64,000 nt of DNA, taken from assembly GCA_964187785.1 (NCBI GenBank), contig OZ076421.1, forward strand, positions 37,262,001 through 37,326,000, read 5' to 3'. The position numbers were made by a program, and so were the translations under genes. The stretch comes from Amphiscolops sp. MND2022 (lineage: Eukaryota). Numbering within the stretch: the first letter of the stretch is position 1; every line of letters begins with the position of its first letter. The notes beneath the pieces were generated by a model. That model saw only the letters and a list, made by a program, of their open reading frames with translations, had not been told where the DNA came from and searched no databases. Of the stretch, positions 14,834-61,808 are shown piece after piece.

Positions 14834-15979
14834 TGCACATCTTTTGCAAAATTTTTCACAAAACCTCTTTGCAAAAGACAAAGAAAATGCAATATCTGAC
14901 ACTCCCTTTTACAAGATTCTTGTAAAGTTTACGAATTTCAGCTAAAAATGGTACAAAATATAAAAAATTTTACAAACCTTTTACAAAATTTGCATCATTT
15001 GACTTGAGAAAATATTGAAAAAAAGTAGATGCTAACCTATTAATCAGAAAAAATCATGGGAGGGATAAATGACACCATACTATTAACTTTAGCTTTGGCA
15101 ACAAAAGGATCCTATGTCTATCATAAGTGACCTCGATCAAACCTTTCTAAAACAGCTGAGAAAAAGAGAAAAAAAATACAATTAAAAAACCAAATAAAAT
15201 CATGCAATTTCCCATGACCCCACGACTGACCCTCGGGGATTTGAAACATACCATGAGTCATTTACTAATGTTCATGATAAAAAAGTATTCAACAACATCA
15301 AAATTGTTTTTTTAATACAAAAAGACAATCAACGCTGTTCTTGTTTCTCTTAAAAAGGGGTGTTTAAACCAGCAAGTTTTGATTGCAGAGCAAAAAAGTT
15401 CTTTTTTGTGGATATATTCCTGAAAAGTTTTGTGGCTGAAAAGTAAAGAAAAAATTGTGAAAACGTTTTGGATACTTTCAATTTTGTTGAAAAAGATAAA
15501 AGAAGTAAAAGAACGTTAAAAAGAGTGTGCATTTTTTATTTTAGTCCAATTTGAATCAACATATTGAAGAAAAAATGAAATCTGAATTCGGAGAAATTCA
15601 AAAGTTGAAGATCGAAAATCTTTTAGAGCTAAAGTGATCATTCAATCGTGGGCTACTCTTTTTACTTCAATCTTACTAGCTTTCGTGAAGTAACCCTTTA
15701 GTGGCATAATTATTACGTCAATTTGAAAGGTACGGCGACAACTCATACCAAGTGACAACTCATATCAAACAAAATTCATATCAGAAAATTGAATTCTAAA
15801 TCAGAAAAAGTCTGTTTAATGAATTTATTCCAAATCATCTGTTTAATATTTACAAAAATTTATTCACTTGAGGAGATTATGGTAAATATCAGTGCCTTCG
15901 ATAATTTTTTCATTATCATAACTTGATTTAAAAGTTTGCAGGGAAATTAATTAAATAATTAATCAATTAATTTTTCCAG

Positions 15980-16932
15980 GCACTGTCAACTTCTGCTGGA
16001 TTCCAGACACTTACTTCATTCTAGCCAGATCTATCTACTACAGCCCATCATCACAAAGTCTAACTGTCCAGAAAGACGGAAAAGTGTTTCTGGATCGCAA
16101 AATCCGGCTTGTGACCCCTTGCACGCCAGAAGTCTGGTTCTTCCCATTCGACGTCACAACTTGCAAAATTCTCATATCCAGTTACGGCTACGAGGAAGAC
16201 GAAATGGACCTGTATTGGCAGGAAACCGGGATTGATTTTCCCTTCGAGTACGAACCCTTGTCGGAAATGGGTTTCAAAATGATTGGAATGAAAACCAAAA
16301 AGTTCGCGGCCCCCTATGGTACGTCAAACTTCACAATTTTGGAAGGCCAGATAGAACTGAAGCGATTATACTCAGTTTACATCTATCAAATTTACATCCC
16401 CGCCGCACTGCTGGTCCTGCTATCTTGGGTCTCGTTTTTCATCAACCGAAACGCGACTCCGGCTCGAGCCAGCGTGGGTGTGACCACAGTTCTTACCATG
16501 CTAACTCTGGCTACCCAGAGCCAGCAGAACATGGAGAAGCACATAACTCTGGAAACAAGTTTGCTCGATGTGTACATTTGGGTCAGTTTTAGTTTCGTCA
16601 TTGCCGCAATGATGGAGTTTGCGGTTTCGGACTATTTCAATGACCGGAAAACCCGCGCTAAAAACAAACCCCGTCCGGCTGTGAAACCCCAGATCTACGA
16701 GAATCATAACAACAACAATCTGAACCCCATTCACAATAACATAGGAGGGGGGCCTCACCCCTCCATACCCCTAATCCGCAATTCCGACTCCGGCGCCCAA
16801 CCACCTGTCGAAAAAAATTCCATTTCCATCGACGGAGCTGCCCGTATATTTTTTCCTCTCACTTTTTTCATTTTCAACACAAGCTATTGGATCTACGTTT
16901 TTATCCACAGTCAAAAAAGTGACGACACATGA
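15980..16932 (+). CDS. Cys-loop ligand-gated anion channel (GABA-A/GlyR/GluCl superfamily), exon 3 with the rest of the ECD and M1-M4
   Basis: Acceptor TTTTTCCAG|GC, phase 1. Contains WIPDTYF (loop A), C-x13-C Cys-loop CTPEVWFFPFDVTTC, SSYGY (loop B), M2 with PAR anion-selectivity motif (TPARASVGVTTVLTMLTL), M3 and M4 (IDGAARIFFPLTFFIFNTSYW). Spliced CDS is 294+136+953=1383 nt = 460 aa plus stop. Confidence 0.95.
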
Positions 16933-21101: not shown

Positions 21102-22098
21102 AATCGCTCACTGCTTCCTCTTGTCAGCATAGAGCACGGCTTTTATTTGTTTTTCTGTTGTAATTCTAAATTGGAAACACATCAAACTCATTTTAAAATA
21201 GAAGAGAAATCGAGGCGAAGTTCAGTGATATGTTTTTCCCCAACAATTTAGCGTCAATCTGAAATTAATTCACATTGATGCGAATAATGGAGCCAAGCAT
21301 CTTACTGTAACACTCGTGTCTTCAACTGTTGTATTGTACAAAATTGTACAAATTGTACACTGAATTGTACAAAATTGCCTATTTATTTGATCAAATGTTT
21401 GATCAAAAATGTTCTCCAAATTCCAGATGAAACCGTGTATCTCGAAACTCAAGTTTCTGATGTTTTTATGGGGATTAAACCTATAAGAAGCTGAATTGAC
21501 CCGTTTTTTGTTTACTGGAAAACAATAGAATTTTTCAGCAGATTTGCTTTTGGTCTAATTTGAATATTTTTGGGTTCTTTGAAAATTTATCTGGCACAGA
21601 TTCAGGCCGATGCCCACGTTTTTCAAAGCAAAGGAATGAAATGAAAACCGTATTGGACATTTTATTTAGACGTGTCATTCTAAGCATCATCATCAAGTAT
21701 GTCTCAAAGAATTATGCAGACTCTAAAATAATTTTTGACATATTAGAGTTTTAGTTTTTACTTCATAAATTTAGAGTTTTCTAGAAACTTCATTTTCACC
21801 CATTATATGCATCAAATTGGGTTTCATCCTGAAACTTGAATATCGTTCTAAAATGTTTGTCGTCCATCCTGTTGCCTTACTCTGTTCTTAGCTTCCTGTT
21901 AGACTTGTATATATTGTCGATGAAGAAGCGATGAAAGAGGCAGCAAGCGTATGTAAGATGGTTTTTAAATTGAGGCCTTTTGGCCATATTTCGTTGCTTT
22001 TAGTGATGCTTGTTGCTTTTGACATCACAGCTTCCGCGAATTAGATATGATCAAGTCAGTTTTCGTAGATTTGAGTCCATTTATGAGCCCTTATTTAA

Positions 22099-22877
22099 TT
22101 TAACAACCGTGACTAGATGTTAAATCTATGACTAGAGTTCCTTTTTGTTTCCTATTTCAATCGGATGCGAGGACGGTTGTTTTAAATAGTTTTAAGCTAG
22201 CTTGCTTTTCTGTTGTCGTTCTAGGATTGCTCGAGTTAAAACTTTCTTCTGCTTTTTAGGAAAGAATTCAAATTTAAGTTTAATACGTACAAGTTAACAA
22301 CTTACATTATTTTATCAATCTGCACAACTGGAGTTGAAGATAGCTGGTGGGGTTTAGAAGCAAGGTTGGAGTTGGGGTGATGAAGTTGAGACAAAAGTCA
22401 GAACTGCTTTCTTCTTCGGAGTTAATTTATTGAATGATCAAGATTAAATTTTTGTGTTTTTCGAAAGGTTCGAACAAGTTTTTTTCATGAATTTTATCAA
22501 GGGGTAAATAATTGAGCACAGTAATTAAGATTAAATCCAAGCATGCAAGTTGACAAGTTGATACGAAGAATACGAAGAATAATTCCGAGCAAGATGTAAC
22601 AGTGGTTGAGTATTCAATACGTTTTAACAACATCAGTATTTAGAGGGTACAAGTTATAACAAAGTAAATGTGAGTTATGGTTTTAATTCTTGTTGAGAGT
22701 ACAAGTTATAACAATGCGAAGTTAAGTTATGAAGCAACAAGTTTTAACAAATGATTGTTCAAGAGGGGCTCTTTGCAAAGCGAGTTTTAAATTCTTGTCT
22801 GTTTTGTTTGTTTAATAAGGTACTTGAGTTTTCTTGTTGCTGTTTTGTTTTATCTTGTTCTGTCGAGGCTCGTTATA
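22099..22877 (-). repeat. 3' LTR of element 1
   Basis: Colinear with 34008-34786 at offset 11909; about 9 substitutions and no indels by manual comparison (about 1.2%). AATAAA on the - strand near 22425. Confidence 0.95.
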
Positions 22878-22880
22878 ACA

Positions 22881-22890
22881 GGCTCCTCCT
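22881..22890 (-). promoter_or_regulatory. Polypurine tract of element 1
   Basis: The - strand reads AGGAGGAGCC just upstream of TGT-TATAAC at the start of the 3' LTR. Confidence 0.7.
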
Positions 22891-23047
22891 GTGCAGAATT
22901 GTGTCCTTACAATTATACTAGCTGGTCCATTCAGGAATTGAATAGCAGGTATAATTGAGGATATTCTATTCGGCCTTGTTTAGCAGGGCGTCCATCGGAA
23001 GTATTGGGCAGGCATTCGGGGCAGAACAGGCGGCGGGAAAGAAGATC

Positions 23048-24151
23048 TTAAAGGCCTGTAAGACCACAGTGGTCATAGACTACGCGAAGGGGAGGATGCA
23101 TGAGAACCCGCTTGATGTTGGTAATGAGGGGCACGAGTCGCGCCGCATCATGTGCCAGGGGCCCAGTGAGGGTATTTTTGTCGGGGTGTATGAGGCGGAG
23201 TAAAGCGTTCGCCTGCGAAGATAAGAATGTAGTATCCGCATCAGATTTGCAACATAGGAAGTGATAGAGAGTGTCATCGGGTGTCGTTTCAGCTTCGAAA
23301 TCCGTCGGTAGCGAGGTTAAATGACTGAGGAGAAGTTGAATGGCGGCGTCGGGGGAAGTATTAGTCTTGCGTTTAAGTTGTGATTTAAGTTCGTTGATTT
23401 CCTCAATTCGGTGGAGAGATTCTTGCAGCAATTGATTATGTGTGACGCGAAGTTCCTCAAGGGTTGCTTTTAAACGTTCAGACTCTAATTGAGCATTGGC
23501 CAGGGAGCTTCTTATTGCAACAGCTTCAGCGTTGGCTTTTTCATACAGGTCGAAGTAATTCATTGCTTCCTCGCGAGCTTCACAAAAGGCAGTGTTCAAA
23601 TGGTCTACGCAGGAGAAGTCCGTCATAATTGAGCACCAGTCATCGAGGGCTTTATCGGTAGTGAGTTCGCATTGAATAGCGATGTCATCAGTATCGGGGT
23701 GTACTTTTGGCGGTTCAGGGTCAGGACAAAGGCAGTTGTTGGTAGGAAGATCTACGGCACACGTAGAGTCTGAGGTTAACGGGGGTGCAAGGCAAATTTG
23801 ATGCCATGAACGACGGAAGGGGCGGTTGGTGGTGTTGATGCGCTGTAAGCGCACGGCCTGCTGGTCGGGGAGGATCTGGGTGACACGATATTGCACATCT
23901 TCTACTAGGTATACATTGTCGCCAACACTGAGAGGGTGCACTCGTCCGGAACAAGTTTGCACAGGGAAGGGCGTGTTCTCCGGAACTCGGGTGTTGAAGA
24001 ACTGGAAGAAAGACCTAAACAAAAAAAAGTCATGACTAATTGTTTTTTTTTCATTTAGTATAACCCTATTATTAGATAAGACATACTGAGTAGTGTAACA
24101 TACGGAAACGTATGTAAGGCAGCTGAAACGTACGGGTACGTACGAGTGCAT
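23048..24151 (-). CDS. Retroelement accessory protein: SH3/Tudor-like barrel, coiled coil and C-terminal DnaJ J-domain (probably spliced, exon starting at 24014)
   Basis: Uninterrupted 367-codon ORF between env and the 3' LTR. The C-terminus TLYHFLCCKSDADTTFLSSQANALLRLIHPDKN...ITNIKRVLMHPPLRVVYDHCGLTGL follows the J-domain pattern (HPD at 23181-23189). Strong acceptor TTTTTTTTGTTTAG|G at 24015/24014. Confidence 0.85.
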   Translation of the reverse strand: MHSYVPVRFSCLTYVSVCYTTQYVLSNNRVILNEKKTISHDFFLFRSFFQFFNTRVPENTPFPVQTCSGRVHPLSVGDNVYLVEDVQYRVTQILPDQQAVRLQRINTTNRPFRRSWHQICLAPPLTSDSTCAVDLPTNNCLCPDPEPPKVHPDTDDIAIQCELTTDKALDDWCSIMTDFSCVDHLNTAFCEAREEAMNYFDLYEKANAEAVAIRSSLANAQLESERLKATLEELRVTHNQLLQESLHRIEEINELKSQLKRKTNTSPDAAIQLLLSHLTSLPTDFEAETTPDDTLYHFLCCKSDADTTFLSSQANALLRLIHPDKNTLTGPLAHDAARLVPLITNIKRVLMHPPLRVVYDHCGLTGL

Positions 24152-24351
24152 GAATCATGAGAACGTTGGCAACTGTTGGAATGGCACGGATACATGCCAA
24201 AGGGGGAGGACTGGGCCTCTGTGTGAATCTAGCGAGAGTCTTGACAGTGTTTGATTTCAATTAATAAATATGTAATATTTAGTAGTGGGTGACGCGGGAA
24301 CACGTACAAAGGGGGCAGCAAGCTGTTATTGGAAATCGAGGAGTGTAAAAC

Positions 24352-26733
24352 TTAAGTAGAAGATTCAGAATATATAGGAGCGCCAACGGTTGGATAAATT
24401 CGGGGTGGTGTTTGAGGTTTGTTATGGATTGTAAGAGAGTTAGTGTTAGTATTAGTGTTAGTATTAGTGTTAACTGAGGCATAGTTAGTTTGTAAGGTCT
24501 GGAGAGGTTCTGATTGTGTAATAGTAGCATGTGCGAGTGATTGAAGTGCGGTAAATTCCTCAAGCGAAAGATAGAGAAACGTGGAATCGATGTCAGCAGG
24601 GTTGGGAACAGAGTCGACGATGTGGAGGAAACGACCAGAGTTTCCTCGGAAGAAACGTTGCGGATGTGCAAATAGTCGTCGCCATTGTCGTCGAAAGAGC
24701 GTAAAATTCACGCCGAAAGTAAGTAATGATAGGGTGATGGAGACCAGCGAGAAGCACACAGCCGTTCGAAGAGGCATATAAGAAGACAGAGCAGCAGATG
24801 TAGCTGGAGAAATCGATGAGTAGTACTGGGTTATTGGTCGGGTCAATTCTTCAAGCGTGTCTGATGACATGCGTTTAACATCCGGCAATTCAGCAAGTTC
24901 GAGTCTAACGCTGCTGAGTACCGATTGACGTGCTTCAGCGACTGAGTAGGCATGAAACTTATGAGCTATTTGTGGAACATGTTTGAACACATGAGCCAAA
25001 GAGGGGGTCAGTTCGATAGACGCCACGAGAGGCTCCGGTTTGCTTTCGCAGAAATCCATGTCCGGTGAAAGAACAAGATCACCTTGGTTGAATGATAGTG
25101 TGCTGGTACAACTAGGGCGAATTAGGCAAGCTTGGCAAGAAAGTGTTGATATCGAAAATCCAGCCAAGCGACTATCGTTTTTCATTTGAATGTTAGGATT
25201 TCTTGAGATTACATGATAAAGGCCATCAGCTAGATAGAACGCTTGAGGAGCGTCAGGAAGCAAAACAGATTCCACCTTACAGTTTCGGAGAGATGGAATG
25301 TCATAATTATAGAACAAGGAGGGCAGGCAAAGGAGAGTTTCGTCTGTGGTGGTGGAGAAACCTTTACGACAAAGCTTTATCCTATTATTGCCGGAGCATT
25401 GCTGCACTGTGGAGGCGCTGAGTTCCGCGAACTGGGTATTGTCTTCAGATATGGCTAGGAAGGGGTTAGTGAGTTGGTAGATTGAAGCGGTGTCACCATC
25501 GTCATTCGGTTGATGCAGTGCTGTGGCATGATACACATTGAAAGAAGAAGAGCGGGAATTCATGGGAATACCGAGTACATCCGATATGCCTCGGGAAAGA
25601 AGGGATACTTCCAAGACAAGTTGTATCTCGTAGTAAATGGCTTCTTGGCCAGGACGGATAGCGGGGGACAATTTGGTCCCTCTGAGGATCTCGTCGTTGG
25701 CGAGCTCGTTAACAATTTGAGACAGCTGTGCTGGAAGGAGAAACTGTGGTGTGACGTAACCAGCTGCTAGTGACGATATTGTTGAAAAGAGTGCAACTTT
25801 GTAAGCGTAAAACGACGCACGATAACTTTTCACATGGGTATATAAGGAGTCCAAATGATTTATGTAGCTACGTATTTCCTCAGAAAAATACATGTTTTGA
25901 ATAATGTGGAGATTGCATTGCCAGGTTCTCGCCAATACACCTTTAATCTTCAAGATGTCTGTCTGGAGTAAACTAAGGTTGGCACCGATAGCATCGTTGA
26001 TCTGCTGAACACTTTCCTGTGTTGCTTTTATTTCATGTCCCAGCATGAAAAAGTTTTCATCATTTTTTGTCTGTACACGTTGTAGAGTTTCCTGGAAACT
26101 TCTTTGCTGGTCCATAATGCGGTTGACATTATCTTCCAACACTCTATTGTCTGTGCAGAGGTTGAAAATCGAGAGCGCCGAACATGCAGCGTTCTTTACT
26201 GGGTCTCCGAGAACCAGTCCAGCCGCGCCAGCGGCTGCCATCAATATTCCTACCGCTCGGCGGTTTCTTGTTCCGGGATGTGTATCCGGGTCCACTCGTG
26301 GAGGTAAGAAGGACGATGCTATGTCAAGTAATCGAGATTCATCATTGCGGACACTTTGGATTTCTTTCTCCAATAACCTTAGTTTTTCTTCCAACTGATC
26401 GAATAGCAAGTGATAGAGTTCTGTCATTTTCTGAGACTCACACAATTTTACGGTGTCCATCCCTTCGATTGTATTAGAGTTGCCTTTCGTTCGCAAGATG
26501 GTATACACATCGGTTAGGTTTATAAAAGGCATGTTAGGGAACGGCGAGAAGACGCGAACTTTGCTTTCACTTTCCGACGTCACGGCTTGGTATTTGAACA
26601 CGAAAGCTGCACCTTTCTTGAAGATGGGTGTGTCCATTGTGTCACTTAGATGGGTGGCGAATTGAACGTCCGCGGAGCTAAGATGAAGGGTGAAGAGCCA
26701 ATAGAAAAGGAGAAAGACAGCCATTGTGCCCAT
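24352..26733 (-). CDS. env: Envelope / class I fusion glycoprotein (793 aa)
   Basis: Signal peptide MAVFLLFYWLFTLHLSSA; furin site RNRR followed by fusion peptide AVGILMAAAGAAGLVLG; heptad-repeat helix; Cys-rich region; TM AVCFSLVSITLSLLTFGVNFTLF; cytoplasmic tail. No stops or frameshifts. Confidence 0.92.
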   Translation of the reverse strand: MGTMAVFLLFYWLFTLHLSSADVQFATHLSDTMDTPIFKKGAAFVFKYQAVTSESESKVRVFSPFPNMPFINLTDVYTILRTKGNSNTIEGMDTVKLCESQKMTELYHLLFDQLEEKLRLLEKEIQSVRNDESRLLDIASSFLPPRVDPDTHPGTRNRRAVGILMAAAGAAGLVLGDPVKNAACSALSIFNLCTDNRVLEDNVNRIMDQQRSFQETLQRVQTKNDENFFMLGHEIKATQESVQQINDAIGANLSLLQTDILKIKGVLARTWQCNLHIIQNMYFSEEIRSYINHLDSLYTHVKSYRASFYAYKVALFSTISSLAAGYVTPQFLLPAQLSQIVNELANDEILRGTKLSPAIRPGQEAIYYEIQLVLEVSLLSRGISDVLGIPMNSRSSSFNVYHATALHQPNDDGDTASIYQLTNPFLAISEDNTQFAELSASTVQQCSGNNRIKLCRKGFSTTTDETLLCLPSLFYNYDIPSLRNCKVESVLLPDAPQAFYLADGLYHVISRNPNIQMKNDSRLAGFSISTLSCQACLIRPSCTSTLSFNQGDLVLSPDMDFCESKPEPLVASIELTPSLAHVFKHVPQIAHKFHAYSVAEARQSVLSSVRLELAELPDVKRMSSDTLEELTRPITQYYSSISPATSAALSSYMPLRTAVCFSLVSITLSLLTFGVNFTLFRRQWRRLFAHPQRFFRGNSGRFLHIVDSVPNPADIDSTFLYLSLEEFTALQSLAHATITQSEPLQTLQTNYASVNTNTNTNTNTNSLTIHNKPQTPPRIYPTVGAPIYSESST

Positions 26734-26745
26734 CGGGGTTTCTCT

Positions 26746-26820
26746 CCTGAAGTAAGGAAATCATTGATTTTCATGGGAAAGTGAAGAGTTATAAGAAAGA
26801 AGAAGGATCAGAGAGGTTAG
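26746..26820 (-). promoter_or_regulatory. env splice acceptor (branch point, polypyrimidine tract, AG)
   Basis: The - strand reads ACTAAC CTCTCTGATCCTTCTTCTTTCTT...TTTCCTTACTTCAG|GAGAGAAACCCCGATG. Confidence 0.7.
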
Positions 26821-26825
26821 TATGT

Positions 26826-29800
26826 TCATGACCCTGGGCCGTTTCTGGCAGCGTTCTTCTTCTTTTTCGGGGACAGGAAGTCGGTGAGATCACGTGGAAT
26901 TCGAGCTTTGTATAGAGGATTGGCTTTTCGTTGGTTCATGGTAGATTGTCGTAGACTTCGCGGTGGCATAGAAGTGCGCTGTACGAATTGCTGGGTCGCG
27001 CTGTCAATAATAGTTCCTAGAGGGGATCGCAGATTTTCGTGAACGCGCGTTGGTGTTGAGTGCTGGGGAGTAATGGTTCTGAAAGAAGAATCCGAGGGTT
27101 CTCTACTCTGAAAATTTGAGGTGTTGAAGCAGTCAGCGGTCTGGGTTGGGACGAATGGGGGAGCTGAAGCATTCAGGAGAGATTCTCGGTGCACGGGAGA
27201 CTGCGACTGCTGGGTCTCGGATTGCGAAGTGGACGTAACAAACGATTGTGAAAAAGAACAGTTTGTTGGAGGTTGCCCTCTCATGGGCAGGAAAGTTACA
27301 TCACAGTCGCTATGATCAAAGCCCTGTCGCTTTGAGGGTTTTGCGGCCGTAGTAAGTGGCGTCAAGCGCTCGGGTATGTTACTCGTGGAAGGGGGTTGAC
27401 CGAAGTAGGGTTTGATACGGTCATAGTGAACTACCAACTGTTTCTGGGTGCTCAATTCTTCGATTTTGTAATTGGCGTCATTAATACATTTCAGTATGCG
27501 GTAGGGTCCACGCCAAGGACTAGATAATTTAGGACTATTTCCTTTTGTAGTGACAGGATAATGGAGGAGAATGTAATCATTTTCGTTATACGAAGAACCA
27601 TGGACCTTTTTGTTGTATATGGCATTCCGTCGCAATTGTTGGGCATTAGTGCTGTAACGCACTAGTTCAAAGGCTTTATGAAAAAGAGCTTGCTTTTGTA
27701 GTACGAAGTTGTTGGGAGGCAAGGCAAGATTGGATTGAGGTCCTTTGTACATCAAATCAATGGGTAATGTCAGTTCGTGGCCGAACACTAAGAAATTCGG
27801 TGTGAAGCCTGTTGATTCATGAACAGAGGAACGATAGGCCAATAAGACGAAGGGAAGAAGTGAAGACCAATTTGATTGGTCATCGGCAATGCATTTGGAA
27901 AGCATATTGAGCAGTGTTCGGTTCATTCGCTCAATGACTGAATTCGATTGGGGATGGAAGGAGGTAGTTCTGGTTTTATCGATTTCAAGTCGGCGCATAA
28001 GGTGCTGAAAAAGATCAGACTCGAAATTTCGGTCTTGGTCTGTATGAATACTGTAAGGACACCCAAAACGACAAATCCAGTGTTGCAAGAACGCGTTAGC
28101 AGTGGTTGTAGCTTGCTGATCAGGGAGTGGTAACGCCTCGTACCATTTTGTGAAGTGATCTCCGATCAATAAAATGAATTGGTTGCCGTTAGATAGCGGC
28201 AATGGCCCTAAGAAATCCATCCCGATATGGTGGAACGGGTAACTGACTTTCCAATCGACCAAGGAATGACGGTGCGTTTTCGGTGGGTTGGAGCGTTTTT
28301 GACAAATATCACAACATCGGATAAAAAATTTAACATCCTCCTTGAAGCCTGGCCAATAGAAGCGTTGTCGCACCTTCTCAATGACCTTGTAAGTTCCTAA
28401 ATGGCCAGCCGTTGGAGAACTATGAAGCGACTCAAGGACTTCTGGAATTAAGACGTGAGGTACAATCTGTTGAAGGAAGGGGACGCTACCATCGTTAGGC
28501 TCGAATTTTCGACAGAGAATATCGTTATGAAGGTATAGGCTACCTAAATGGTTATACATTCGCCAGGCCAGTCTCGGTAGGCCTTGTAACTCACTAGTGG
28601 TAGGGGTTTTGCTGGCCCGGACCCAAGCGCGAACGTGGCGTAGGGCCTCGTCTGCCTCTTGTAGTTCTTGTAGTGTTTCGATTCCACTGAATTTTCCATT
28701 GTGGTTAGGCTGCGAGGATCGTGCAAACTCTTTCAGATACAGTGATTTGAACAGTTGATGTACGGAACGTTTCTCGGATGAGTTGACAGATTTTGTCTTC
28801 GTCCAAGCAATCCACACCACATCCAGCACAAGGTATGCTTATACTTTTCACTGTATTCTGTTCAGCATGTGCGCGCATACGCTCTAACGAGGCTCTGAGG
28901 GTACCGTATGTGGTTTTGTTGTTCTGCTTTTGTTTTGTAATCAAGTGGTAGATGTAGCGCTGGGAGTCAGGTAACCACTGAGGCCAAATAGAATGAAGGG
29001 TGTGATCGAGGTTTGTGGGGTAGGCAATGGGAAAGTTTCTTTTGATCTTGCGAGCTATGCCCGATGACATTTTGAAGTCGGCGGAGACACAATGAGCGAA
29101 GGAGTCATTAGTTGAGAGAAGGTCCGCGGAAACCTCACGGTACTGGCCGGTTGGTGAGAGATCAGGAATGACTGGAGTAGACACATTCAAGTCTCGGTTT
29201 GGCCATTCCTGGTCACAGTTGTTCGCGTCTACAACTGGCTCATCTTCACCGGGTCTGTAAGCAGGAGTTGATTGTTCAGTGATCACGTTGATGACGGAAG
29301 GAGATCGTGACAGGCCATCAGCATGACCAATCGACTTTCCGGGACGATGCCTGACTTCGTAATTGAATGGAGCCAGCTTTTCAAGCCAGCGCGCGGTTAT
29401 CCCATCGGGATCTTTGAAGTTATGGAGCCATTGAAGTGCTCGGTGATCAGTAACAATTGTGAACTTTTGCCCTAGGAGATAGTGACGAAAGTGTCGGGTG
29501 AAATTAACAATAGCGAGAAGCTCACGCCGCGTCGCAGAATATTTGCTTTGAGCCTTGGAGAAAGACTTCGACGCGTAACATATAGCTCGCTCAAGACCGT
29601 CATGCTCTTGTGCAAGGACGGCGCCCATTGCAAATTGGCTTGCATCGGTGTATAAGATGAAAGGTTTGGTTAATGAAGGAAAAGCTAAAACGGGCGTCGT
29701 GGTGAGTTTTATTTCAAGGATCTCGAAGGCTTCCTGAGCTTCAGAGGTCCATTGGAAAGCAGACGAAGTCTCACTTGCTTTGTGAAGGGGGCGTGCAATG

Positions 29801-31561
29801 GCGGCAAAGTTTTGGACGTATCGGCGATAGTAAGAGGCTAGCCCCAGGAACGACTTCACCTGGGTTTGGTTTTGAGGTTGCGGGAATTCGACCACTGCTT
29901 TGACTTTGTCTGGGTCAACCTGTAGTCCATGTTGACTGACCACATGGCCGAGGAAGTTAACTTTTGTGCGAAAGAAGTCACACTTTGATGGGTTGATCTT
30001 CAAGTTGGCGTCACTGAAACGCTGAAATATTTCCCGAAGACGAGAGATGTGCTCCTGCTGAGTTTTTGCGAAAATGATGCAATCATCCAAATAAGGAACA
30101 CAAGTTTTCCAAATCAGGCCCACTAGGACACTTTCCATTAGGCTCTGGAACGTGTTCGGGCTCCCAGTGAGACCCATTGGCATGCGAAGCCATTTGAAGG
30201 AGCCGAAGGGGGTGCTAAAGGCTGTAAAATCTTGACTTTTCTTCAGCCATTGGTACTTGGTAGAACCCAGCCGACATGTCAATGGTAGAAAAGTAGGAGC
30301 TGCCTTCTAGTGTGTCGAAAATTTCTTCAATCGAGGGGATTGGCCAACTCGACTTGACGGTAGTCAATGACAAGCCGAAGTTTTCCATTTTTCTTTGGAA
30401 CCAACATAGCCGGGGAGCTATATGGACTGTGACAGGGAGTGATAAGATCTTTATCGAGAAAAACATCGATTTTGTTTTGGAGGTCTTCTTTGTAGTGCAG
30501 TGGCATCCTCCTGTTGGGAATTTTGACCGGCCTTGACCCTGGGTAGACTTCAATCTTGTGACTAGTGACATCGCACTTACCCAAATCCCATTCGGATGAA
30601 GAGAACACGTGCTCGAATTCCTTCACTAGATCTTTAAATTGTTGTCGGTATTCCTCATCGATGTCTTCGTCAATGTTGCTGAATAGTGACTCTAAGTCGT
30701 ACTTCATACTCTTCTTGGTTTTGACTTGCGACTGGTTTGGTTTCTGAGACGGACGTGGGAGAGGCGATTGACTGACGTTATTCAAACTGTCTTCAGACAC
30801 AATCTCTGATGTCCACAGAGTTGTGTTTTTGTATATAGTTATTATCGGAGGAGGCTGTGTTATTGAACACTATTGGAATCGTTTCCTCAGAATAGTTGAA
30901 AAGAATATTCGGAGCGACCACCTCGCGAGTAGAGTTAAACTTTTCGAGAGGTTCAAAATAGCATTCAAGGGGATAGGTGGTTTCTTCCAGTCCGAAATAT
31001 GGGCTGGCAGAATTTTGGCATGGCCAGCTGGTACCATGGCTGTTTCGGTGGCAATGACTCGAAACACTGCATTACTGGTGAGCTCAAAGGTTTGTGGTAC
31101 ATGGGAACAGACTGAGTTGAGTCGAGTCTCAGTTTCATCTGCGAGAACAGTGGATCACACTTGTTTGTTTCTAGGAAATCCAGTCCCAGAAGGCAATCGG
31201 CTTCTGAATTTTCCAAGACACGGAATTCATGAACGTACTGCTTCGTACCTATTCGTACCGGAACCCGTATGACGCCTTTGACTGCTATAGGTAGTACATT
31301 AGCTGCTCTCAGGTTCCTAGTACACGCGTTCAAGGGAATGTCATTTCTTTTCTTCAGTTCATCATAGATTTTAGGGTTCAGACAAGACACACTTGCTCCA
31401 CAATCACGTACAGCTTCTACATCTATGTTCAAAATTGTGAGTTTAACGAAGACGCTACGGGGGTCAACCACTGAATTCATTGTTAGGACTGATTGTGGGC
31501 CATGGGGTGTATTCGTGTCTGCGCGGAGGCCCTCTGGCGTAGACGATTTCAGTTTTCCTGG
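26826..31561 (-). pseudogene. pol: pol (protease, RT, RNase H, macrodomain, integrase) with about 5 frameshifts; -1 frame relative to gag
   Basis: PR AVRDCGAS; RT SPYSSPAMLVPKKNG, MPMGL, YLDD; RH YTDAS, RELLAIV, VTDHRAL. IN has HHCC (H-x6-H...C-x2-C), GMDFLGP, HTDQDRNF, VIERMNRTL and GPY. Frame breaks near 31085, 30870, 30340, 30240 and 28740. Confidence 0.95.
28742..29146 (-). other. TARG1/OARD1-type macrodomain inside Pol, between RNase H and integrase
   Basis: SFAHCVSADFKMSSGIA, RYIYHLITKQ, KTTYGTLRASLERMRAH and ISIPCAGCGVDCL resemble the TARG1 motifs SLAHCISEDCRMGAGIA, RYIYYLITKK, KPTYENLQKSLEAMKSH and LSMPRIGCGLDRL as I recall them. Confidence 0.88.
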
Positions 31562-32828
31562 TTTGACCGGGAAGCTCTGCAGTCCCGTCTGAAGTGGCCT
31601 ACTCTATGACAATTGAAACATGCTTTGCACTCGTTCGAGGCATGATTGGTCCGCTTACAATGACGACATTCCTGTTTCTGGTTCGATTTACTGTTGGAGT
31701 TCTTGGAATAGTCGGAAGAGTTCTTTCCTTGGTTATTACGGTTCGGTGAATGCCTTTGATTGTTCCTGTTGTCATACTCTCTGTGTCCGTTCCTCTGAGT
31801 GTGGCGACGCTCGTTTCCATCCTCAAAGTGGACCGATCGGGATCGATCTCCCGAGGTACTTCTATCATCTCGGCGTCCTCGGCCTTGATTTCTGTCGTGG
31901 GAATTGTTCCTGTTGGTTCCTTGCTGGCTGCTCGAGTTATTACTGTGACGATTGTTGTCTCGCGAATCGGACCTGTTGCTATGTGAAGCCTTTAAGTTGG
32001 CAATCTCAGCGCGTAACGTTCTAACAAGCTCATCGACTGTGTCAGACCTTTGGGAGCCGGAGGCCACTTGATTAACAGCACTTGTAAACTCCGTACTTGC
32101 TTTGTTTTGTTGTTCTAAGGCAAGGAACGAGTCAAGCTCGATAGCCAATGTTAACGCTTCATCAGCTGTGGTAGGCTTGGTTTTTCTTAGTTCCCATCGC
32201 AGGGTCGAATTCTTTAGACCTTCGATGAAACTGGTCAAAACAATTTGTTCAATAAGATGAGGATGGTTCCGGTATGCGCTTCTTGCTAAAGTTCGAATAT
32301 CGCACAAAAAAGTAGCAATGTCCTGCGTTGGTTGTTGTTTAGCGGCTTTCAAGCGAGCTTTCAGTATATCAACATTTGTAGTGTAGTTCTGTCGGAACGC
32401 TTCGACGAGTTGAGCATAATCGCCTTGTTGTTCAGATGACAAGGTTGTATAGAAATGAAGTGCATTTTCTCGCAGACGTAGTGCAAAATATTGCGGGCGA
32501 TGGTCATGTTGATCAGAGCTCCATCCTGAGAGCGTGGCAGCCGTGTTGAACTGTTGTAGATAGTCCTCGAAATCTCCAGAACCATTGAAGATTTCAGGCA
32601 TCAAGCAAGATGGGAGTGACACGCTCATGGGTAGAAAGGGGGGCGGTATTGACCGTTGACTGCCGCAGTGGAGTTAAAGATTCGTGTGAAAGCATCCGTA
32701 GTGTAATTGTTCGAAAGTGGATCGGCGGGAGTCGAAGAAGAAGTTGCTGATTGGTTTTTAGGAGGGCCTTCGGCATGGGAAGTGCCCGTGGAGGCGTCCA
32801 GTTGCACACCATTTTCAGTATCACTCAT
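31549..32828 (-). CDS. gag: gag (one frame break at about 32628-32643)
   Basis: PEIFNGSGDFEDYLQQFNTAATLSGW capsid-type start and two CCHC knuckles, CRHCKRTNHASNEC and CFNCHRVGHFRRDC. The 67-aa upstream ORF (32828-32625) overlaps the 359-aa ORF at ATGA. Confidence 0.9.
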
Positions 32829-32968
32829 TTTGATTGCAGAAAGAAACCTTTTCGTTCTAGCACTAGATTTGCTGACTGTTCGATATGGTTTATTCGAATG
32901 TTAATGTAGGTTACCCGCCAGAAACTGTAGATTTTGCTAATGCAGGGCGTAATATCACTTTCACACAA

Positions 32969-33349
32969 TCAAATTTGTGAGATACCTCTGCGGAGAAAAG
33001 TTATGCGTAGATGAGCGTCAATAAGAAGTAGATTTTCGACCCACTGTCGCGTCAATTTGAAAAAGAACAAGGATTTCGGGTGCAATCGTGATAGTTGTTT
33101 TCGGGAAGTGCTTTTCCGTCTGACTTCTGCGCGGTTTATGTTAGATTGATGTTCTTTGTCGTGTATTAGCATTAAATTCAAGTAAAGTTGTGAAATTTCA
33201 GGCGAAAGGCCTTTAGCATGCTCTGGATATTTTTCCAAATGTTGAAAGAGTTCAAATCGTTCGACTTGGCAGAGGAAACACGGATATTTTTGTGGCGATT
33301 GATGAGGGGGCACAGAGTTTATTTCAGAGGTAAAAACAAAGTGATACAT
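32969..33349 (-). CDS. Leader ORF-B, 126 aa, possible Zn-binding accessory protein
   Basis: ATG-initiated, in element sense, non-overlapping, between ORF-A and gag. Contains C-x2-C-x9-H-x6-H (CFLCQVERFELFQHLEKYPEH) and a basic stretch RRKSTSRK. Confidence 0.5.
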   Translation of the reverse strand: MYHFVFTSEINSVPPHQSPQKYPCFLCQVERFELFQHLEKYPEHAKGLSPEISQLYLNLMLIHDKEHQSNINRAEVRRKSTSRKQLSRLHPKSLFFFKLTRQWVENLLLIDAHLRITFLRRGISQI

Positions 33350-33402
33350 GCGGTTTTTTGGAAAATTAACGGTCCAGTTTTACGCAAAGGATTTGGTACT
33401 GT

Positions 33403-33648
33403 TTACACTGAAGACTTCATGCAACTGGCCGTGACATACTCCAAACGTATCAGTATGAAAGCTTGTCCGACTATGACAGTGAGAAATAAAAGCAAGACAC
33501 AAATGACACTAACTGAAGTTAAACACAAAGATGCGGAGTCTAAACGGAGTCTTCTATCCACAGCTCGCGAATACCGGGGAGGAGGTTCAGCGGGATAATT
33601 ACGGTTCAAAACGTACCGGGGTAAATGATTAGTATGGTTATGATACAT
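33403..33648 (-). CDS. Leader ORF-A, 81 aa, PPxY motif plus single TM helix
   Basis: ATG-initiated. PAEPPPRYS, basic RAVDRRLR, then hydrophobic LCLTSVSVICVLLLFLTVIVGQAFILI. Confidence 0.55.
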   Translation of the reverse strand: MYHNHTNHLPRYVLNRNYPAEPPPRYSRAVDRRLRLDSASLCLTSVSVICVLLLFLTVIVGQAFILIRLEYVTASCMKSSV

Positions 33649-33988
33649 AATTAATATTAGTATAGGTTAAAATTAGCTAACATTGAGGGTTTTCAAGGTT
33701 TAAGATAAGAAAGAAAAAACTGTAATTTTTACTATCCAACACTTTACCGTCTCCTGAAACGAAGAATAATTAGCGATTTTCAAGTTTTTCAAAAGAATTC
33801 CTAATTGCCCGTGCTCTGGAATTTGCCTACTTATGGGCCCTATCTGCCGTCTACTGTAAATTTTCGCTAGCAGAGCAGCTAGCGTTAGGGCGGGACAAGT
33901 CCCGGAACGAGATCTTAAGGCAGTGTTTTGGAAACATGTGGTCACGCTAAATTACGATATTTTACACTTTTCTTCTATAACAAGAGCA

Positions 33989-34006
33989 ATCCCACTCCTG
34001 TCACCA
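33989..34006 (-). promoter_or_regulatory. Primer-binding site (tRNA-Leu type) of element 1
   Basis: The - strand TGGTGACAGGAGTGGGAT lies 1 nt from the LTR end and is complementary to a tRNA 3' end ATCCCACTCCTGTCACCA, which resembles metazoan tRNA-Leu(CAG) ...ATCCCACTCCTGACACCA. Confidence 0.85.
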
Positions 34007-34007
34007 A

Positions 34008-34786
34008 TTTAACAACCGTGACTAGATGTTAAATCTATGACTAGAGTTCCTTTTTGTTTCCTATTTCAATCGGATGCGAGGACGGTTGTTTTAAATAGTT
34101 TTAAGCTAGCTTGCGTTTCTGTTGTCGTTCTAGGATTGCTCAAGTTAAAACTTTCTTTTGCTTTTTAGGAAAGAATTTAAATTTAAGTTTAATACGTACA
34201 AGTTAACAACTTACATTATTTTATCAATCTGCACAACTGGAGTTGAAGATAGCTGGTGGGGTTTAGAAGCAAGGTTGGAGTTGGGGTGATGAAGTTGAGA
34301 CAAAAGTCAGAACTGCTTTCTTCTTCGGAGTTAATTTATTGAATGATCAAGATTAAATTTTTGTGTTTTTCGAAAGGTTCGAACAAGTTTTTTTCCTGAA
34401 TTTTATCAAGGGGTAACTAATTGAGCACAGTAATTAAGATTAAATCCAAGCATGCAAGTTGACAAGTTGATACGAAGAATACGAAGAATAATTACGAGCA
34501 AGATTTAACAGTGGTTGAGTATTCAATACGTTTTAACAACATCAGTATTTAGAGGGTACAGGTTATAACAAAGTAAATGTGAGTTATGGTTTTAATTCTT
34601 GTTGAGAGTACAAGTTATAACAATGCGAAGTTAAGTTATGAAGCAACAAGTTTTAACAAATGATTGTTCAAGAGGGGCTCTTTGCAAAGCGAGTTTTAAA
34701 TTCTTGTCTGTTTTGTTTGTTTAATAAGGTACTTGAGTTTTCTTGTTGCTGTTTTGTTTTATCTTGTTCTGTCGAGGCTCGTTATA
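34008..34786 (-). repeat. 5' LTR of element 1
   Basis: Near-identical to 22099-22877 and adjacent to the PBS. Confidence 0.95.
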
Positions 34787-35159
34787 TTAACGAAGAAATA
34801 TAGTACAAATGCAAGAAACTTAATTCATATTGAACGAAAATTTCTGATAACTATTTGTCTCGTTCAAATGACGTTTCTACATGTTTTTGTAGTTTGGTAG
34901 GTACACAAACCTGTACAGAAGATGAACAAGACGGAGCGTCTAAAATCGACGCTATAGCTAAGGCTCAAAACGCGCAGTTTTCAAAATATGCGTTGGACGT
35001 TTTCAAGAAAAACTCCTGTTTTCGAACCTCCGCCTCCTCCTTACTAAAACGCAATATAGTTCGGATATAACATCAAACGTTCGGATATAGCGCTTTACTC
35101 CGGATATTACCCGGAGGGATTTCCATTAATCGTACGGTTGACCATTTCGATACAAAAAC

Positions 35160-55050: not shown

Positions 55051-56728
55051 AGTTTTTATTGTCTTTGTAGACTCGCCGATTGAGGAAAGTCAGTTGAAAA
55101 CGCTAGCAATAGCGACTTTTGTTAATGCCTATGCGGCAAAACCTGGTGACTACATAGTAGACATACTTCTCTACGTTTCGAATGTATGTCTGAATTGACA
55201 TCAGCGATGTAATTATTCGAAACATTCGAAGCTGAGATGATTTACTTTTAGAAGAAAATAAAAGATTGTACACCGGAAACACTACACTTTGGCCACGAGC
55301 TATTACCACCCGAATAAAGTAGGTTGATCCTCCAACAACCGTACCAGCAACGTTCAAAGATAGTCATAATGTATGAAAAATTGGAAACCCTGATACAATT
55401 TGGCCATATGCAAACATTTTTGGACCTCTGATTTGTAAATCTGCACCCGTCGATCCTACAATTGTGAAAAGTGTCCACGATACTCATATACCAATGCTAA
55501 ATACATGGAAGTTACATCAATTGCTCAATTGCGCGAAGAGCAGTGTTTATTCAAGGTACGCGAAATTGAAACGCGGTGTAGTATCTAAAAACGTGCTAAC
55601 GCGGTGGAAAAGAGACTTTTGACTTTGTCTTTTAATATCTCAAAAGGATCACGCGAATACAAAAAGTCGATTGCTACCGAGGGCTTTTATCTCATCTGGT
55701 GGTCACAGTCTTGAGCGAACAAACGGTCCACAAGTCAAGTAACTAAGAAACCACTATCACTAAGTCGCAATCAACCGCCATATTGGGCCGTTAGATGACA
55801 CGGAGAAGCGTCAAGGTCACAGGCGGGCAGGAAGGTCTTTCCAGGGGACGATAATTGATCTTATGAGAAACCCTGCATTGCAGCAAGAAATTCGAGCTCG
55901 TTTGCGTGATATATTCTGACGCGTTTGTAAACTGTTTACAAATGTGAACAATTTGACTCAACGTCTTTGACATCGCATCAAAATCGCAAATATCTTGAAA
56001 CGCAAATTATTATGGAATATGAATTTAAGACAAGGTATTGAGATATGTGTAACGTGTGGTAAACAAATCTCTAGTCGAAGTCTAACAACGTTCGGTGTAA
56101 TATCTAAAAACGTGCGAACTCAAAATGCCAAAACCAATATTGTAAATGTAGGGTATAATGGAATTCGAGCGTGAGATCATGCGCGGTAAACAGTAATACC
56201 TGATGAGGAATTGGAATCTACTTGAATGACCTGAACTCAGTTTAGGAGCTACGAACAACTTTATTCTCGTGCCGACAAGACACTCGTTCAGAATGAAACT
56301 TGGGGTCTCGCTAGCCAGAGTCTGAGACTGAAACTGAGAACTGTGACTGTTTTGCAGCATAGAGATTTGAAAGTGACTGAAATGATAAAGTAAGGTGAGG
56401 AGAAGGTTTCAAAGGTTAAATAAAAACTGATATAGCTTGACTAGGAAGCTTTCTCATAAGAGTATCATGTACGTATCAACTGTACTTTAGATATCAAATC
56501 GTATATATGTATTACAAATGCATGACTTCAAGAACAACGCTAGCACGTACTTAAATGTCAGTTCCGATGTTGGCATACCATCCTTTCTATGCCACATTCC
56601 CTCCTCTGTGGATTTTTAGGGGAACCAGTCCCGGGAGGACTCATTGTTCTTTATCCGGGGAAATGGAGTGATTGGGTACTTCTTCGGTATGGTGAAAGTG
56701 TATGTATTTCCTAATTGAACAATGATTA

Positions 56729-59700
56729 TTAGAAACACTCCACTCCACCGAGCTTTACTACCCTCTGTGCCGTTCTTATCCTTTCAGATCTACGTGGTTC
56801 TAAATTAGTTTTTGTTTTACTATTTTCGACCTCGGATTTTTGTTTTAACCCAGGCCCGTTTCTTGTTCGTCGGCATCGTTGGTAGAGTGTAGCTCGTGCT
56901 GGGTTCATTGTCTTCAATGTTGTTGTTTGGGTCTTGCCTGGCTGATTCGGTACGTAGATGTGTTTCGCAAAGCTCGCCGCTAAATTTCCCACATCTGCGG
57001 CATCGATTGGTGACTCTCTTCTGTTCGTCGTTCTTTTTTGATGTCTGAAACTCTAAAGGTTTGGATGCTAATTATTTGGGTATTATTCTCCCTTCGGAGT
57101 TGGTGATTGTGTGGTCTGTTTCTTTTACCGCTGTTAAAGTTTTGTTTGTTTTAAAGCCGCATTTCATTGCGTTTGGTTTGTTTTCCTTTTTGTAAAATTG
57201 ATACTTTTTAAAATCCCGGCATACCGAACGGCCTCTCTTTCTTGTTTCGTTCACGACCAGATAATCCGCCATTTCGCCATCTGAGTCGTTGATAGTAACG
57301 ACTTGGAGTCCTGTAGGTTGTGCTGAAATATAATTGGTTAATGTCCTTTTCCAATTCGATAGTAGACATTCTGATTTACCAATTAAGTTGGTCAGTGCGA
57401 TACGTGGCTTTCTACCTAAATGCATTTGGAAAGGTGTCATGTTTAATCTAATATGTGGCGTTTGTCTAATTTGTTTTTATTGCTAGCTGTACGCTATCTT
57501 CAAAGGCTATGCTATCCGCCATGTTTGCTCTAGTAAGTGATTTAATTGTCCGCATAGTCCGCTCGACTAAACCGGTACCGGTGTGTAAATTGGGAGTGCA
57601 TCTAATACGTGTGACGTTTTCACCGTTGCAAAACTACCTAAATTCGTTGCTTTTGAAACAACTACCGTTGTCGGTTCTGATACACCGTGGTATTCCGTTA
57701 TCCGCGAAGTATTTTGTTGAAAATTTTAAAACGTTCCGTACTTTTGCAAATTTGTGCGGTCGGCCATTTACTAAAACGGTTGATGGCTACCAAAATATAA
57801 ACATCGCCCCGCGTCTTCGATTTGATTGGACCAGTGAAGTCCAATTGAATTTCCTGATTCGGTTCGGTCAAAATTTCTAGAATGTTTTTTTTTCCGTTGA
57901 CGGGATTTGTGTAATAATGTTCTCACCTGCGGCCCTGCAATTCGGGCATGATTCCGCTTTTTCTTGTAATTCTCGGTGCATGCCAGGCCACCAGAAAGCT
58001 TCGGCTGATTGGTCCATTTTTGCAGCTGAGATGTGACCGTGATCCAGGCCATCAGGTCGGTAATTGTTGTGCGCATGTTTTCGGGAATAACTATTTTGTC
58101 ATTGGAAAACAGCAGCCCGATTCTGGTAGAAAGATGTAATCGATGAGGGCGGTACGGGTAAAAAATGCTGTCCAGTTGTTGTTTTTCAATTCCAGCTATT
58201 GCGTTTAGGATCTTTATGTCTCGAGCGGTCTCATCCACTAGTAGAGGGAGATCTAAGGCAAAGTGCTTCTCTGCCCTCTTGATGGTTTCTTCGGTGCTCT
58301 CATTCTGGTCTGGGTTGAGTAGGTCTTTTTTGGCCGTCTGTTTCAGAATTACTGTCTCGTGTTTTTTGAATCTTTTCAGAGCATTGGTCGGGCATTTGTC
58401 TTTTTTCGTTCTGCTGATCTCACTTTCTCCGTCTGGTTGATTGTTGTTCAGTCACGATTCGTTGTTATTTTGCTGAAACTCTAGTAGAGGCGTTGTTCCG
58501 AGCGTCTCGCAATAGTGAAAAAAACGGATGTAAATTTCAATGTTGAGTTCGACTATCCGTTTTCTGCCGGCTTGATTTGGTCTGTACTCCTCTATCCCTT
58601 CACTTTGTTTTCCTTTCCCCACAATACGGGTTTTATCCGGCTTTAATATGTGGCTTCGCTCAACCCAGAGACGTTTTGTTTCGGGGGAGTGGCCTCTCTT
58701 TTTATAGATGAAATCCATGTCGATGTCGTTGACGTTGTCAATTTTACGGTTCGAGTGTGGCGAGATTTTATTCAAAGAGTTGATACTGTTTGGTAGCGAT
58801 GAGGTTTTACACAAATGAGTGTTTGAATTTCGTTCACGTATGTTTTTGTCGCGCTGTGATTGGTCGAATTATTCTCTCGCGATCGCTTGTTCGATGAATT
58901 GTTTAAAACTTCCTCGTGCTCGGATGAATTCGAATAGGCCGTATATTTGGTTAACGACGAACTCGGATTCCGCTTCGTTTTGTCCGTCCGTTTTGTTCTC
59001 TGACTCGCTAATTTTGGTCGGTAAGATCGGGCGACACCTTGAATAATCCATTAGCGGAATGTTTTTACCGGCCGTGTATTGGACATTAACATCAAAATGG
59101 CTCATTCTGTCCAACCAACAAATCAGCCGTGCGCTGTATTGTTTATGTGCTCGGTTTCTTTTCAACAAAGGCTGTAACGCCTGATGATCAGTTAGTAAAT
59201 TCACCCTTTTACCATACACATAATACCTGAAGTATTCTAATCCCCAAAACGCTCCCAACAATTCCAATTCATTTATCGCGTATTTTTTTCACAGTCAGTT
59301 AAAAATCTACTTGCAAAAGCTACGGGTCTGAATATTTCACCTTCTTTCTGCCACAAAGTCGCACCCGATCCGGTGTTACAAGCGTCGGTAGTGATGTAGT
59401 TGCTTCTTTTTGGGTCAAAATGGGCTAAGCATGGGGCTTCCGTAATCTCCTTCTTCAGTTTCTCGAAGTCCTCATCTATTTCTGGTGTCCAGTCCCATTT
59501 AACATCTTTCTTTAATAATTTTCTCATTCGATCAGTTTTTTTCGACAAATTATTAATGAACTTCGACAGATGTTGTATGGAGCCCAGGAAGGATTTCAAC
59601 TCCGTTACGTTCTCCGGTGCGACAAGTTTGGTTATCGCTTCTGTTTTGTATTTAATTGGTTTGACGCCGTTCTGATTGATGAGATAGCCAAGCCAGGTTA

Positions 59701-61778: not shown

Positions 61779-61794
61779 GATATTTTGTTCAGGT

Positions 61795-61808
61795 TGCTGA
61801 CTGCGCCA
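61795..61808 (-). promoter_or_regulatory. Primer-binding site (tRNA-Ser type) of element 2
   Basis: The - strand TGGCGCAGTCAGCA directly abuts the 5' LTR. TGGCGCAGTC is the tRNA-Ser PBS type known from several gypsy-group elements. Confidence 0.75.

Follow-up and report, generated by a model that had tools for sequence, protein, structure and literature searches.

The 64,000-nucleotide stretch of DNA analysed here (the window) contains a 12.7-kb Ty3/gypsy element on the minus strand (22099-34786) that carries env and extra open reading frames. The env and J-ORF mRNAs of this element are best explained by one splice donor in the 5' LTR, where the first exon would end with AT and the first G of the acceptor would complete the ATG; from the comparison of related copies we regard this as likely. 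The original prediction had connected the same two acceptors to a donor within ORF-A, a small reading frame upstream of gag, and this choice of donor was probably wrong.

Structure of the element and its predicted products

The 5' LTR (34008-34786, minus strand, 779 bp) and the 3' LTR (22099-22877, minus strand) differ by 9 mismatches over 779 bp and have the termini TA...AA, not TG...CA. The primer-binding site (PBS; 33988-34006, minus strand), which we take to be tRNA-Leu-like, follows the 5' LTR, and a purine-rich tract (22878-22895, minus strand) adjoins the 3' LTR. The element is flanked by the 4-bp target-site duplication TTAA (34787-34790 and 22095-22098). Duplications of 4 bp were found in all six copies with both ends seen, the window copy and five others. 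The two LTRs, the PBS, the purine tract and the target-site duplication, together with the order protease-RT-RNase H-integrase in pol, are those of Ty3/gypsy elements (Metaviridae). The position of env after pol, with a signal-like N-terminus, a furin site and a transmembrane segment, is errantivirus-like as judged by hydropathy and motifs only.

All reading frames are on the minus strand. ORF-A (33403-33648) codes for 81 residues with a PPxY motif and one hydrophobic segment (49-67) and is conserved in all six families described below. ORF-B (32969-33349, 126 residues) has no family match and contains an invariant CxxC and HxxxH. They are followed by the gag region with a CCHC knuckle (31549-32828) and by pol with protease, RT, RNase H, Macro domain and integrase (26826-31603). 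The env exon from the acceptor at 26746 (24352-26746) has a hydrophobic N-terminus, a furin-type site RNRR/A and a C-terminal hydrophobic segment. The J-ORF exon from the acceptor at 24014 (23048-24014) is predicted to code for a KOW/Tudor-like barrel, a coiled coil and a J-domain with HPD. The window copy is defective. The N-terminal part and the capsid part of gag occupy different frames, pol is split over several frames, and the J-ORF stops 39 codons before the end seen in 4 of the 5 other copies read.

In the 1.07-Gb animal assembly the leader was matched 12 times and the J protein 141 times, the latter down to about 25% identity. Leader and env/J stretches from 30 further elements were assigned by sequence similarity to six families, F1 (with the window copy) to F6. 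F2 is the sister closest to F1, with 47% identity in ORF-A and 45-49% in the J protein.

The env of the window had no Pfam hit and no PDB sequence hit, and two of four relatives scanned (P0090, P0095) passed the Baculo_F cut-off; env is F-type as judged by these relatives. In the J protein the HPD was invariant in 12/12 aligned sequences, and the profile matched the J-domain of DNAJC5 with an E of 8e-4. The Pfam DnaJ cut-off of 27.8 bits was missed by the window protein (17.4) and by the best relative (24.8), and at E<=0.05 seven of the 12 J sequences matched. The structural model (mean pLDDT 66, pTM 0.28) contains a small beta barrel, a long helix and a helical C-terminal domain; the J-domain helices are predicted there with a pLDDT of about 55-65. 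In a Foldseek search of the model the rows were KOW/Tudor barrels and J-domains, none of them at E<=0.001. An Atlas search with the J protein gave nothing usable (best 0.77), and neither did one with ORF-B, where recognition was low. Sequence and model together suggest that the J-ORF product is likely a chaperone-like J-domain protein.

The Macro domain in pol (28705-29000, minus strand) lies between RNase H and integrase and was recognised by Pfam with 27 bits at a cut-off of 22. The CxxC and HxxxH of ORF-B were invariant in the five families aligned, and its product is predicted to bind zinc. Family F2 (L112:2684-3859) has a second ORF-B paralog and a further ORF of 100 residues before gag, without a Pfam hit. 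ORF-A is sORF2/FAST-like in being short with one transmembrane segment, and the N-myristoylation motif (Gly2) was found in 0/6 aligned sequences.

Other sequences were noted on the way. Tandem arrays of the J-ORF with units of 1-3 kb, some with the end of env, occur at C11:7.31 Mb, on C1120, at C12:47.30 and 56.78 Mb and at C5:72.38 Mb. The window contains a second, decayed Ty3/gypsy element (56385-62016, minus strand) with 209-nt direct repeats (94%) and pieces of protease, RT and RNase H, as well as a host exon of a Cys-loop neurotransmitter-gated ion channel (15955-16932, plus strand). Many of the unrelated LTR elements that share the PBS (L189-L206) contain an ORF that begins within the LTR; in L202 a distant env-like ORF (23%) comes directly after the PBS.

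Acceptors of env and the J-ORF

The env acceptor TTACTTCAG/G at 26746 (the slash marks the splice junction) is followed after one base by a frame of 797 codons, and the J acceptor TTTGTTTAG/G at 24014 by one of 321 codons. Ranked by a simple pyrimidine score among the 295 YAG sites of the element, they are 8th and 4th, respectively. The AG of the env acceptor was kept in 31/31 aligned sequences from 35 loci and that of the J acceptor in 32/33 from 37 loci, leaving out the loci that did not align (4/35 and 4/37). For both genes, reading from one base past the AG yields the homologous N-terminus, and phase 2 is common to the families. The original prediction had assigned phase 2 to both acceptors, and the sequence confirmed this.

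The J-ORF exon of the window has its first Met only at residue 130, and 11 of the 13 env frames of F4-F6 have no Met in the first 30 codons. Therefore, a start codon from upstream is needed. With the phase-2 acceptors conserved and the J-ORF start-less, one shared phase-2 donor is a sound inference, and in this respect the original prediction was supported. The env of F1 carries, in addition, a Met of its own at codon 5 or 8 (10/10 aligned copies).

It is highly improbable that env and the J-ORF are made from unspliced RNA or internal promoters and that the splice-like motifs are incidental. The own Met of the F1 env would agree with this, as would a Met in the window J frame 46 codons before the acceptor. 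In five other copies, however, the upstream J frame is only 5, 11, 5, 14 and 5 codons long (5 to 47 codons across the six copies). In addition, for sister families as well as for relatives from the database the protein similarity starts at the acceptor, and the acceptor AG is kept in 63/64 aligned sites. A metagenome contig (L171:295) with a 45%-identical J-ORF has the same T-rich phase-2 AG/G acceptor.

Choice of the donor

The candidate donor D1, AT/GTAAGT (34209-34216, minus strand), is located within the 5' LTR with the AT at 34216-34215 and a predicted intron start at 34214; the 3' LTR holds a second copy at 22305. Donors were scored by their match to MAG/GTRAGT, which we take to be the consensus, and D1 was the best-scoring GT among the 573 in the element. 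All six families have the motif AT/GT(A/T)AGT at a distance of about 190-260 nt upstream of the PBS. AT/GT(A/T)AG was present in 24/28 LTR ends of F1-F5 and in 3/4 F6 LTRs, and it is nearly always the sole such hexamer in the last 520 nt of the F1-F5 LTR ends. D1 was lost or changed in 4/28 LTR ends and 8/29 leaders. When 29 leaders (L012, which has no PBS, and L005 were omitted) were scanned between -500 and +750 relative to the PBS for donors with a phase-2 start, D1 was found in 21 and the ORF-A donor in 6, all of F1. When the scan was relaxed and extended to +3000 for 10 leaders, no further site common to the families emerged.

The 98 nt upstream of D1 could not be aligned between families (z -1.6 to 1.7, 10 pairs); since this flank does not align, the D1 motif is conserved independently of its surroundings. 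Of 125 GT(A/T)AG in host DNA only 9 follow an AT. As a control, 20 loci with the same PBS were taken, from which L194, L201, L207 and L208 were dropped as clade members or carriers of a clade piece. None of the 16 unrelated elements had ATGT(A/T)AGT in the 500 nt before the PBS, and two had ATGT(A/T)AGA at other offsets. Host splice sites were called roughly from myosin exon ends (39 donors, 32 acceptors). Among their best-scoring GT sites GTTAGT occurred in 4/39 and GTAAGT in 2/39, and only 4/39 of these rough calls have a T at -1 as D1 does. F1 and F2 have a long ATG-free leader (234 and 213 nt), F5 a short one (56 nt). A T-rich shift after D1 was observed in F3-F5 and not in F1.

Since AT and the G of an acceptor form an in-frame ATG, the genes without a Met must open with G if D1 is used, and they do. 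G was found in 32/32 intact J acceptors and in 13/13 env acceptors of F4-F6. Eight env acceptors open with A, all of them in F2 and F3, and 7 of these 8 have a Met within 6 codons. Among the rough host myosin acceptors 12/32 open with G. The six families share ancestry, and the pattern of G and A is therefore not made of 12 independent events.

In the proposed mechanism, transcription would begin upstream of 34216, and D1 would be alternatively spliced to the acceptors at 26746 and 24014, so that the AT of the exon end joins the first G of the acceptor to give an in-frame ATG. The unspliced RNA would serve ORF-A, ORF-B, gag and pol. The F1 env could also begin at its own Met, 5-8 codons in. 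The spliced RNAs would be without the PBS, and the element would hence not reverse-transcribe them into DNA.

The donor of the original prediction, CCG/GTACGT (33611-33619, minus strand), is within the codons R-Y-V of ORF-A. Bases, coordinates and phases had been read correctly: ORF-A starts at 33648, reads MYHNHTNHLPR and has the donor at 33617/33616 in phase 2. Used as the main donor, it would provide a common leader of 10 residues to env and the J-ORF. A precedent exists in the ZAM/Beagle subclade of Drosophila ERVs, where env splicing from a short peptide exon upstream of gag is described (PMC12992720). With a score of 7/9, the ORF-A donor is second upstream of gag to the LTR site 34214 (8/9). 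Its frame match with env and the J-ORF counts as a single test, since the two acceptors are in the same phase. It is also weak evidence alone, because 21/97 GT sites upstream of gag, counted as a chance control, likewise have a phase-2 start codon.

The conservation of the GT among copies, which had been proposed as a check, gave a divided answer. The GT was kept in F1 (12/12, in copies down to 79% identity, one old copy reading GTAAGT) and in F4 (7/7), but it was missing in F2 (0/6), F3 (0/1), F5 (0/4) and F6 (0/1). Two of six families thus have the GT, though all six keep the phase-2 acceptors, and F2, the closest sister, is among those without it while its J-ORF still needs a start. Related hexamers (GTTCGT) do occur at host exon ends, but the -1 base in F4 is T or C, and the ATG or the frame of ORF-A is lost in L009 and L011, both of which may be decayed copies. 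ORF-A is a conserved transmembrane protein of 80-90 residues with six invariant residues downstream of the donor site. As it is conserved well past the site, the GTACGT hexamer can be a by-product of the R/L-Y-V codons. The ORF-A donor also makes no prediction of G or A, because CGN is always Arg, and leaves the pattern at the acceptors unpredicted. We consider it quite unlikely that this is the main donor. By the sequence comparison it cannot be the mechanism of the clade; it may be a minor donor in F1.

A further donor-like site, D2 (ACG/GTAAAG, intron start 33747), follows 6 nt after an acceptor-like site at 33753 (33742-33770, minus strand). Each of the six families has a D2-like donor between +232 and +314 relative to the PBS. 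Retroviral major donors sit just after the PBS, as D2 does. D2 could then be the real donor and D1 a promoter or start-site motif; env would start at its own Met where one is present, and the Met-less genes would rely on a non-AUG start or on one specific to the family. In F1-F3 env carries a Met of its own, TTAGT presumably resembles an initiator motif, and several families have polyA-like hexamers 20-60 nt past D1, which is consistent with a short R that begins at D1. A transcription start at D1 or beyond it would exclude D1 as the donor. D2, however, has no start codon common to the families: the only copies with a phase-2 ATG upstream of it are a decayed one of F6 and one of F2. The J-ORF of all families and the env of F4-F6 would therefore lack a start, and phase 2 and the +1 G at the acceptors would be a coincidence. 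We regard this explanation as unlikely.

D2 might bind U1 and guard the 5' LTR from polyadenylation. The acceptor at 33753, adjoining D2 by 6 nt, is the top-ranked one in the element, and a splice from D1 to this site would take the PBS out of the leader. A 6-nt microexon between 33753 and D2 was considered and rejected; the phase is kept in F1, and by eye a similar site is present only in F3 (11 nt). PolyA-like hexamers occur upstream of D1 and 20-60 nt downstream, and none is constant. An AATAAA 126 nt before D1 was changed in 10/17 F1 LTRs and was rejected as a conserved polyA signal. Because it is not conserved, the LTR anatomy could not be fixed.

Spliced DNA copies were looked for with the exon ends of both donors and with the acceptor regions. 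All 12 matches to the ORF-A exon end were ordinary copies, GTAAG follows in each of the 17 exact matches to the D1 exon end, and 0/26 matches to the J region begin at the acceptor. One env match begins at the acceptor; it adjoins an upstream piece and was set aside as a local deletion. The lack of spliced DNA copies is expected, and weak evidence, since the D1 products are without the PBS. The N-termini of 16 of the 41 J relatives in the database, and those of env relatives with the anchor motif, look like gene calls on genomic DNA, and the leader of neither donor was seen among them.

Relation to known elements and significance

In HIV and the foamy viruses one 5' donor is joined to several 3' acceptors, and the foamy virus donor is in the LTR. 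The T antigens of polyomaviruses contain a viral J-domain. All these viruses belong to lineages different from that of the element, and the likeness is a resemblance only.

The closest counterpart of the proposed mechanism is found in the springer subclade of Drosophila ERVs, in which env is described as spliced from an AU dinucleotide (PMC12992720). Both are Ty3/gypsy elements with an F-type env after pol and a start of env completed by splicing, which is predicted in the present case. At the level of sequence, the predicted exon ends with AU at the donor and the acceptor opens with G in frame. Possibly unlike that of the springer ERVs, the predicted donor here is within the LTR before the PBS and would serve two acceptors, env and the J-domain gene. 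ORF-A resembles the ZAM/Beagle case in its place upstream of gag and in its phase-2 GT. The difference is that the GT occurs in 2/6 families and that ORF-A, conserved beyond it, is a full transmembrane protein and not a short peptide exon. Both donors thus have a precedent, and the evidence favours the springer type.

Env-carrying Ty3/gypsy elements across metazoans have been described as 'Ancient errantiviruses' (PMC13524379). The element shares with them the order LTR-gag-pol-env (F-type), the multiple copies and the recent insertions. Compared with the main text of that paper, the clade here adds ORF-A, ORF-B, the Macro domain and the J-domain gene; the words 'DnaJ', 'macro', 'splic' and 'accessory' are absent from this main text, and its supplements may list these elements. 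MDG1-group elements have two small ORFs upstream of gag, sORF1 and sORF2, which are described as read from unspliced RNA, and one of the two has a transmembrane segment as here (PMC11952523). The MDG1 elements differ in having no env according to the same source; in the present element the transmembrane ORF comes first and lacks the Gly2 myristoylation motif. The resemblance of ORF-A to sORF2 is restricted to the size and the transmembrane segment (PMC11952523). Rotifer elements carry other captured ORFs, and the part of the article consulted does not mention DnaJ (PMC5408684). In the literature searched, which excluded Repbase and most subscription papers, no env retrotransposon with a J-domain or a Macro domain was found. 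The D1 mechanism would be a variant of a known one, and the gene set with the J-domain gene, ORF-A, ORF-B and the Macro domain did not turn up in the literature searched.

There is perhaps an even chance that these elements represent a 'complex' invertebrate ERV clade in Ty3/gypsy. A half start codon (AT/G) in the LTR would switch two late genes made by alternative splicing, env and a J-domain co-chaperone acquired by capture. Besides these two there would be a transmembrane protein with a PPxY motif, a zinc-binding protein and a Macro domain in pol, and the retrovirus-like plan would have evolved independently. The analysis provides exact, testable junctions for envelope expression in an env-carrying retrotransposon outside the insects. 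The predicted second spliced gene, that of the J-domain protein, would be mis-started by open-reading-frame annotation. If the proposal holds, the split start codon described in Drosophila occurs again in a distant clade, where it is placed within the LTR and controls two genes; this would bear on how often retrovirus-like complexity arose in Ty3/gypsy.
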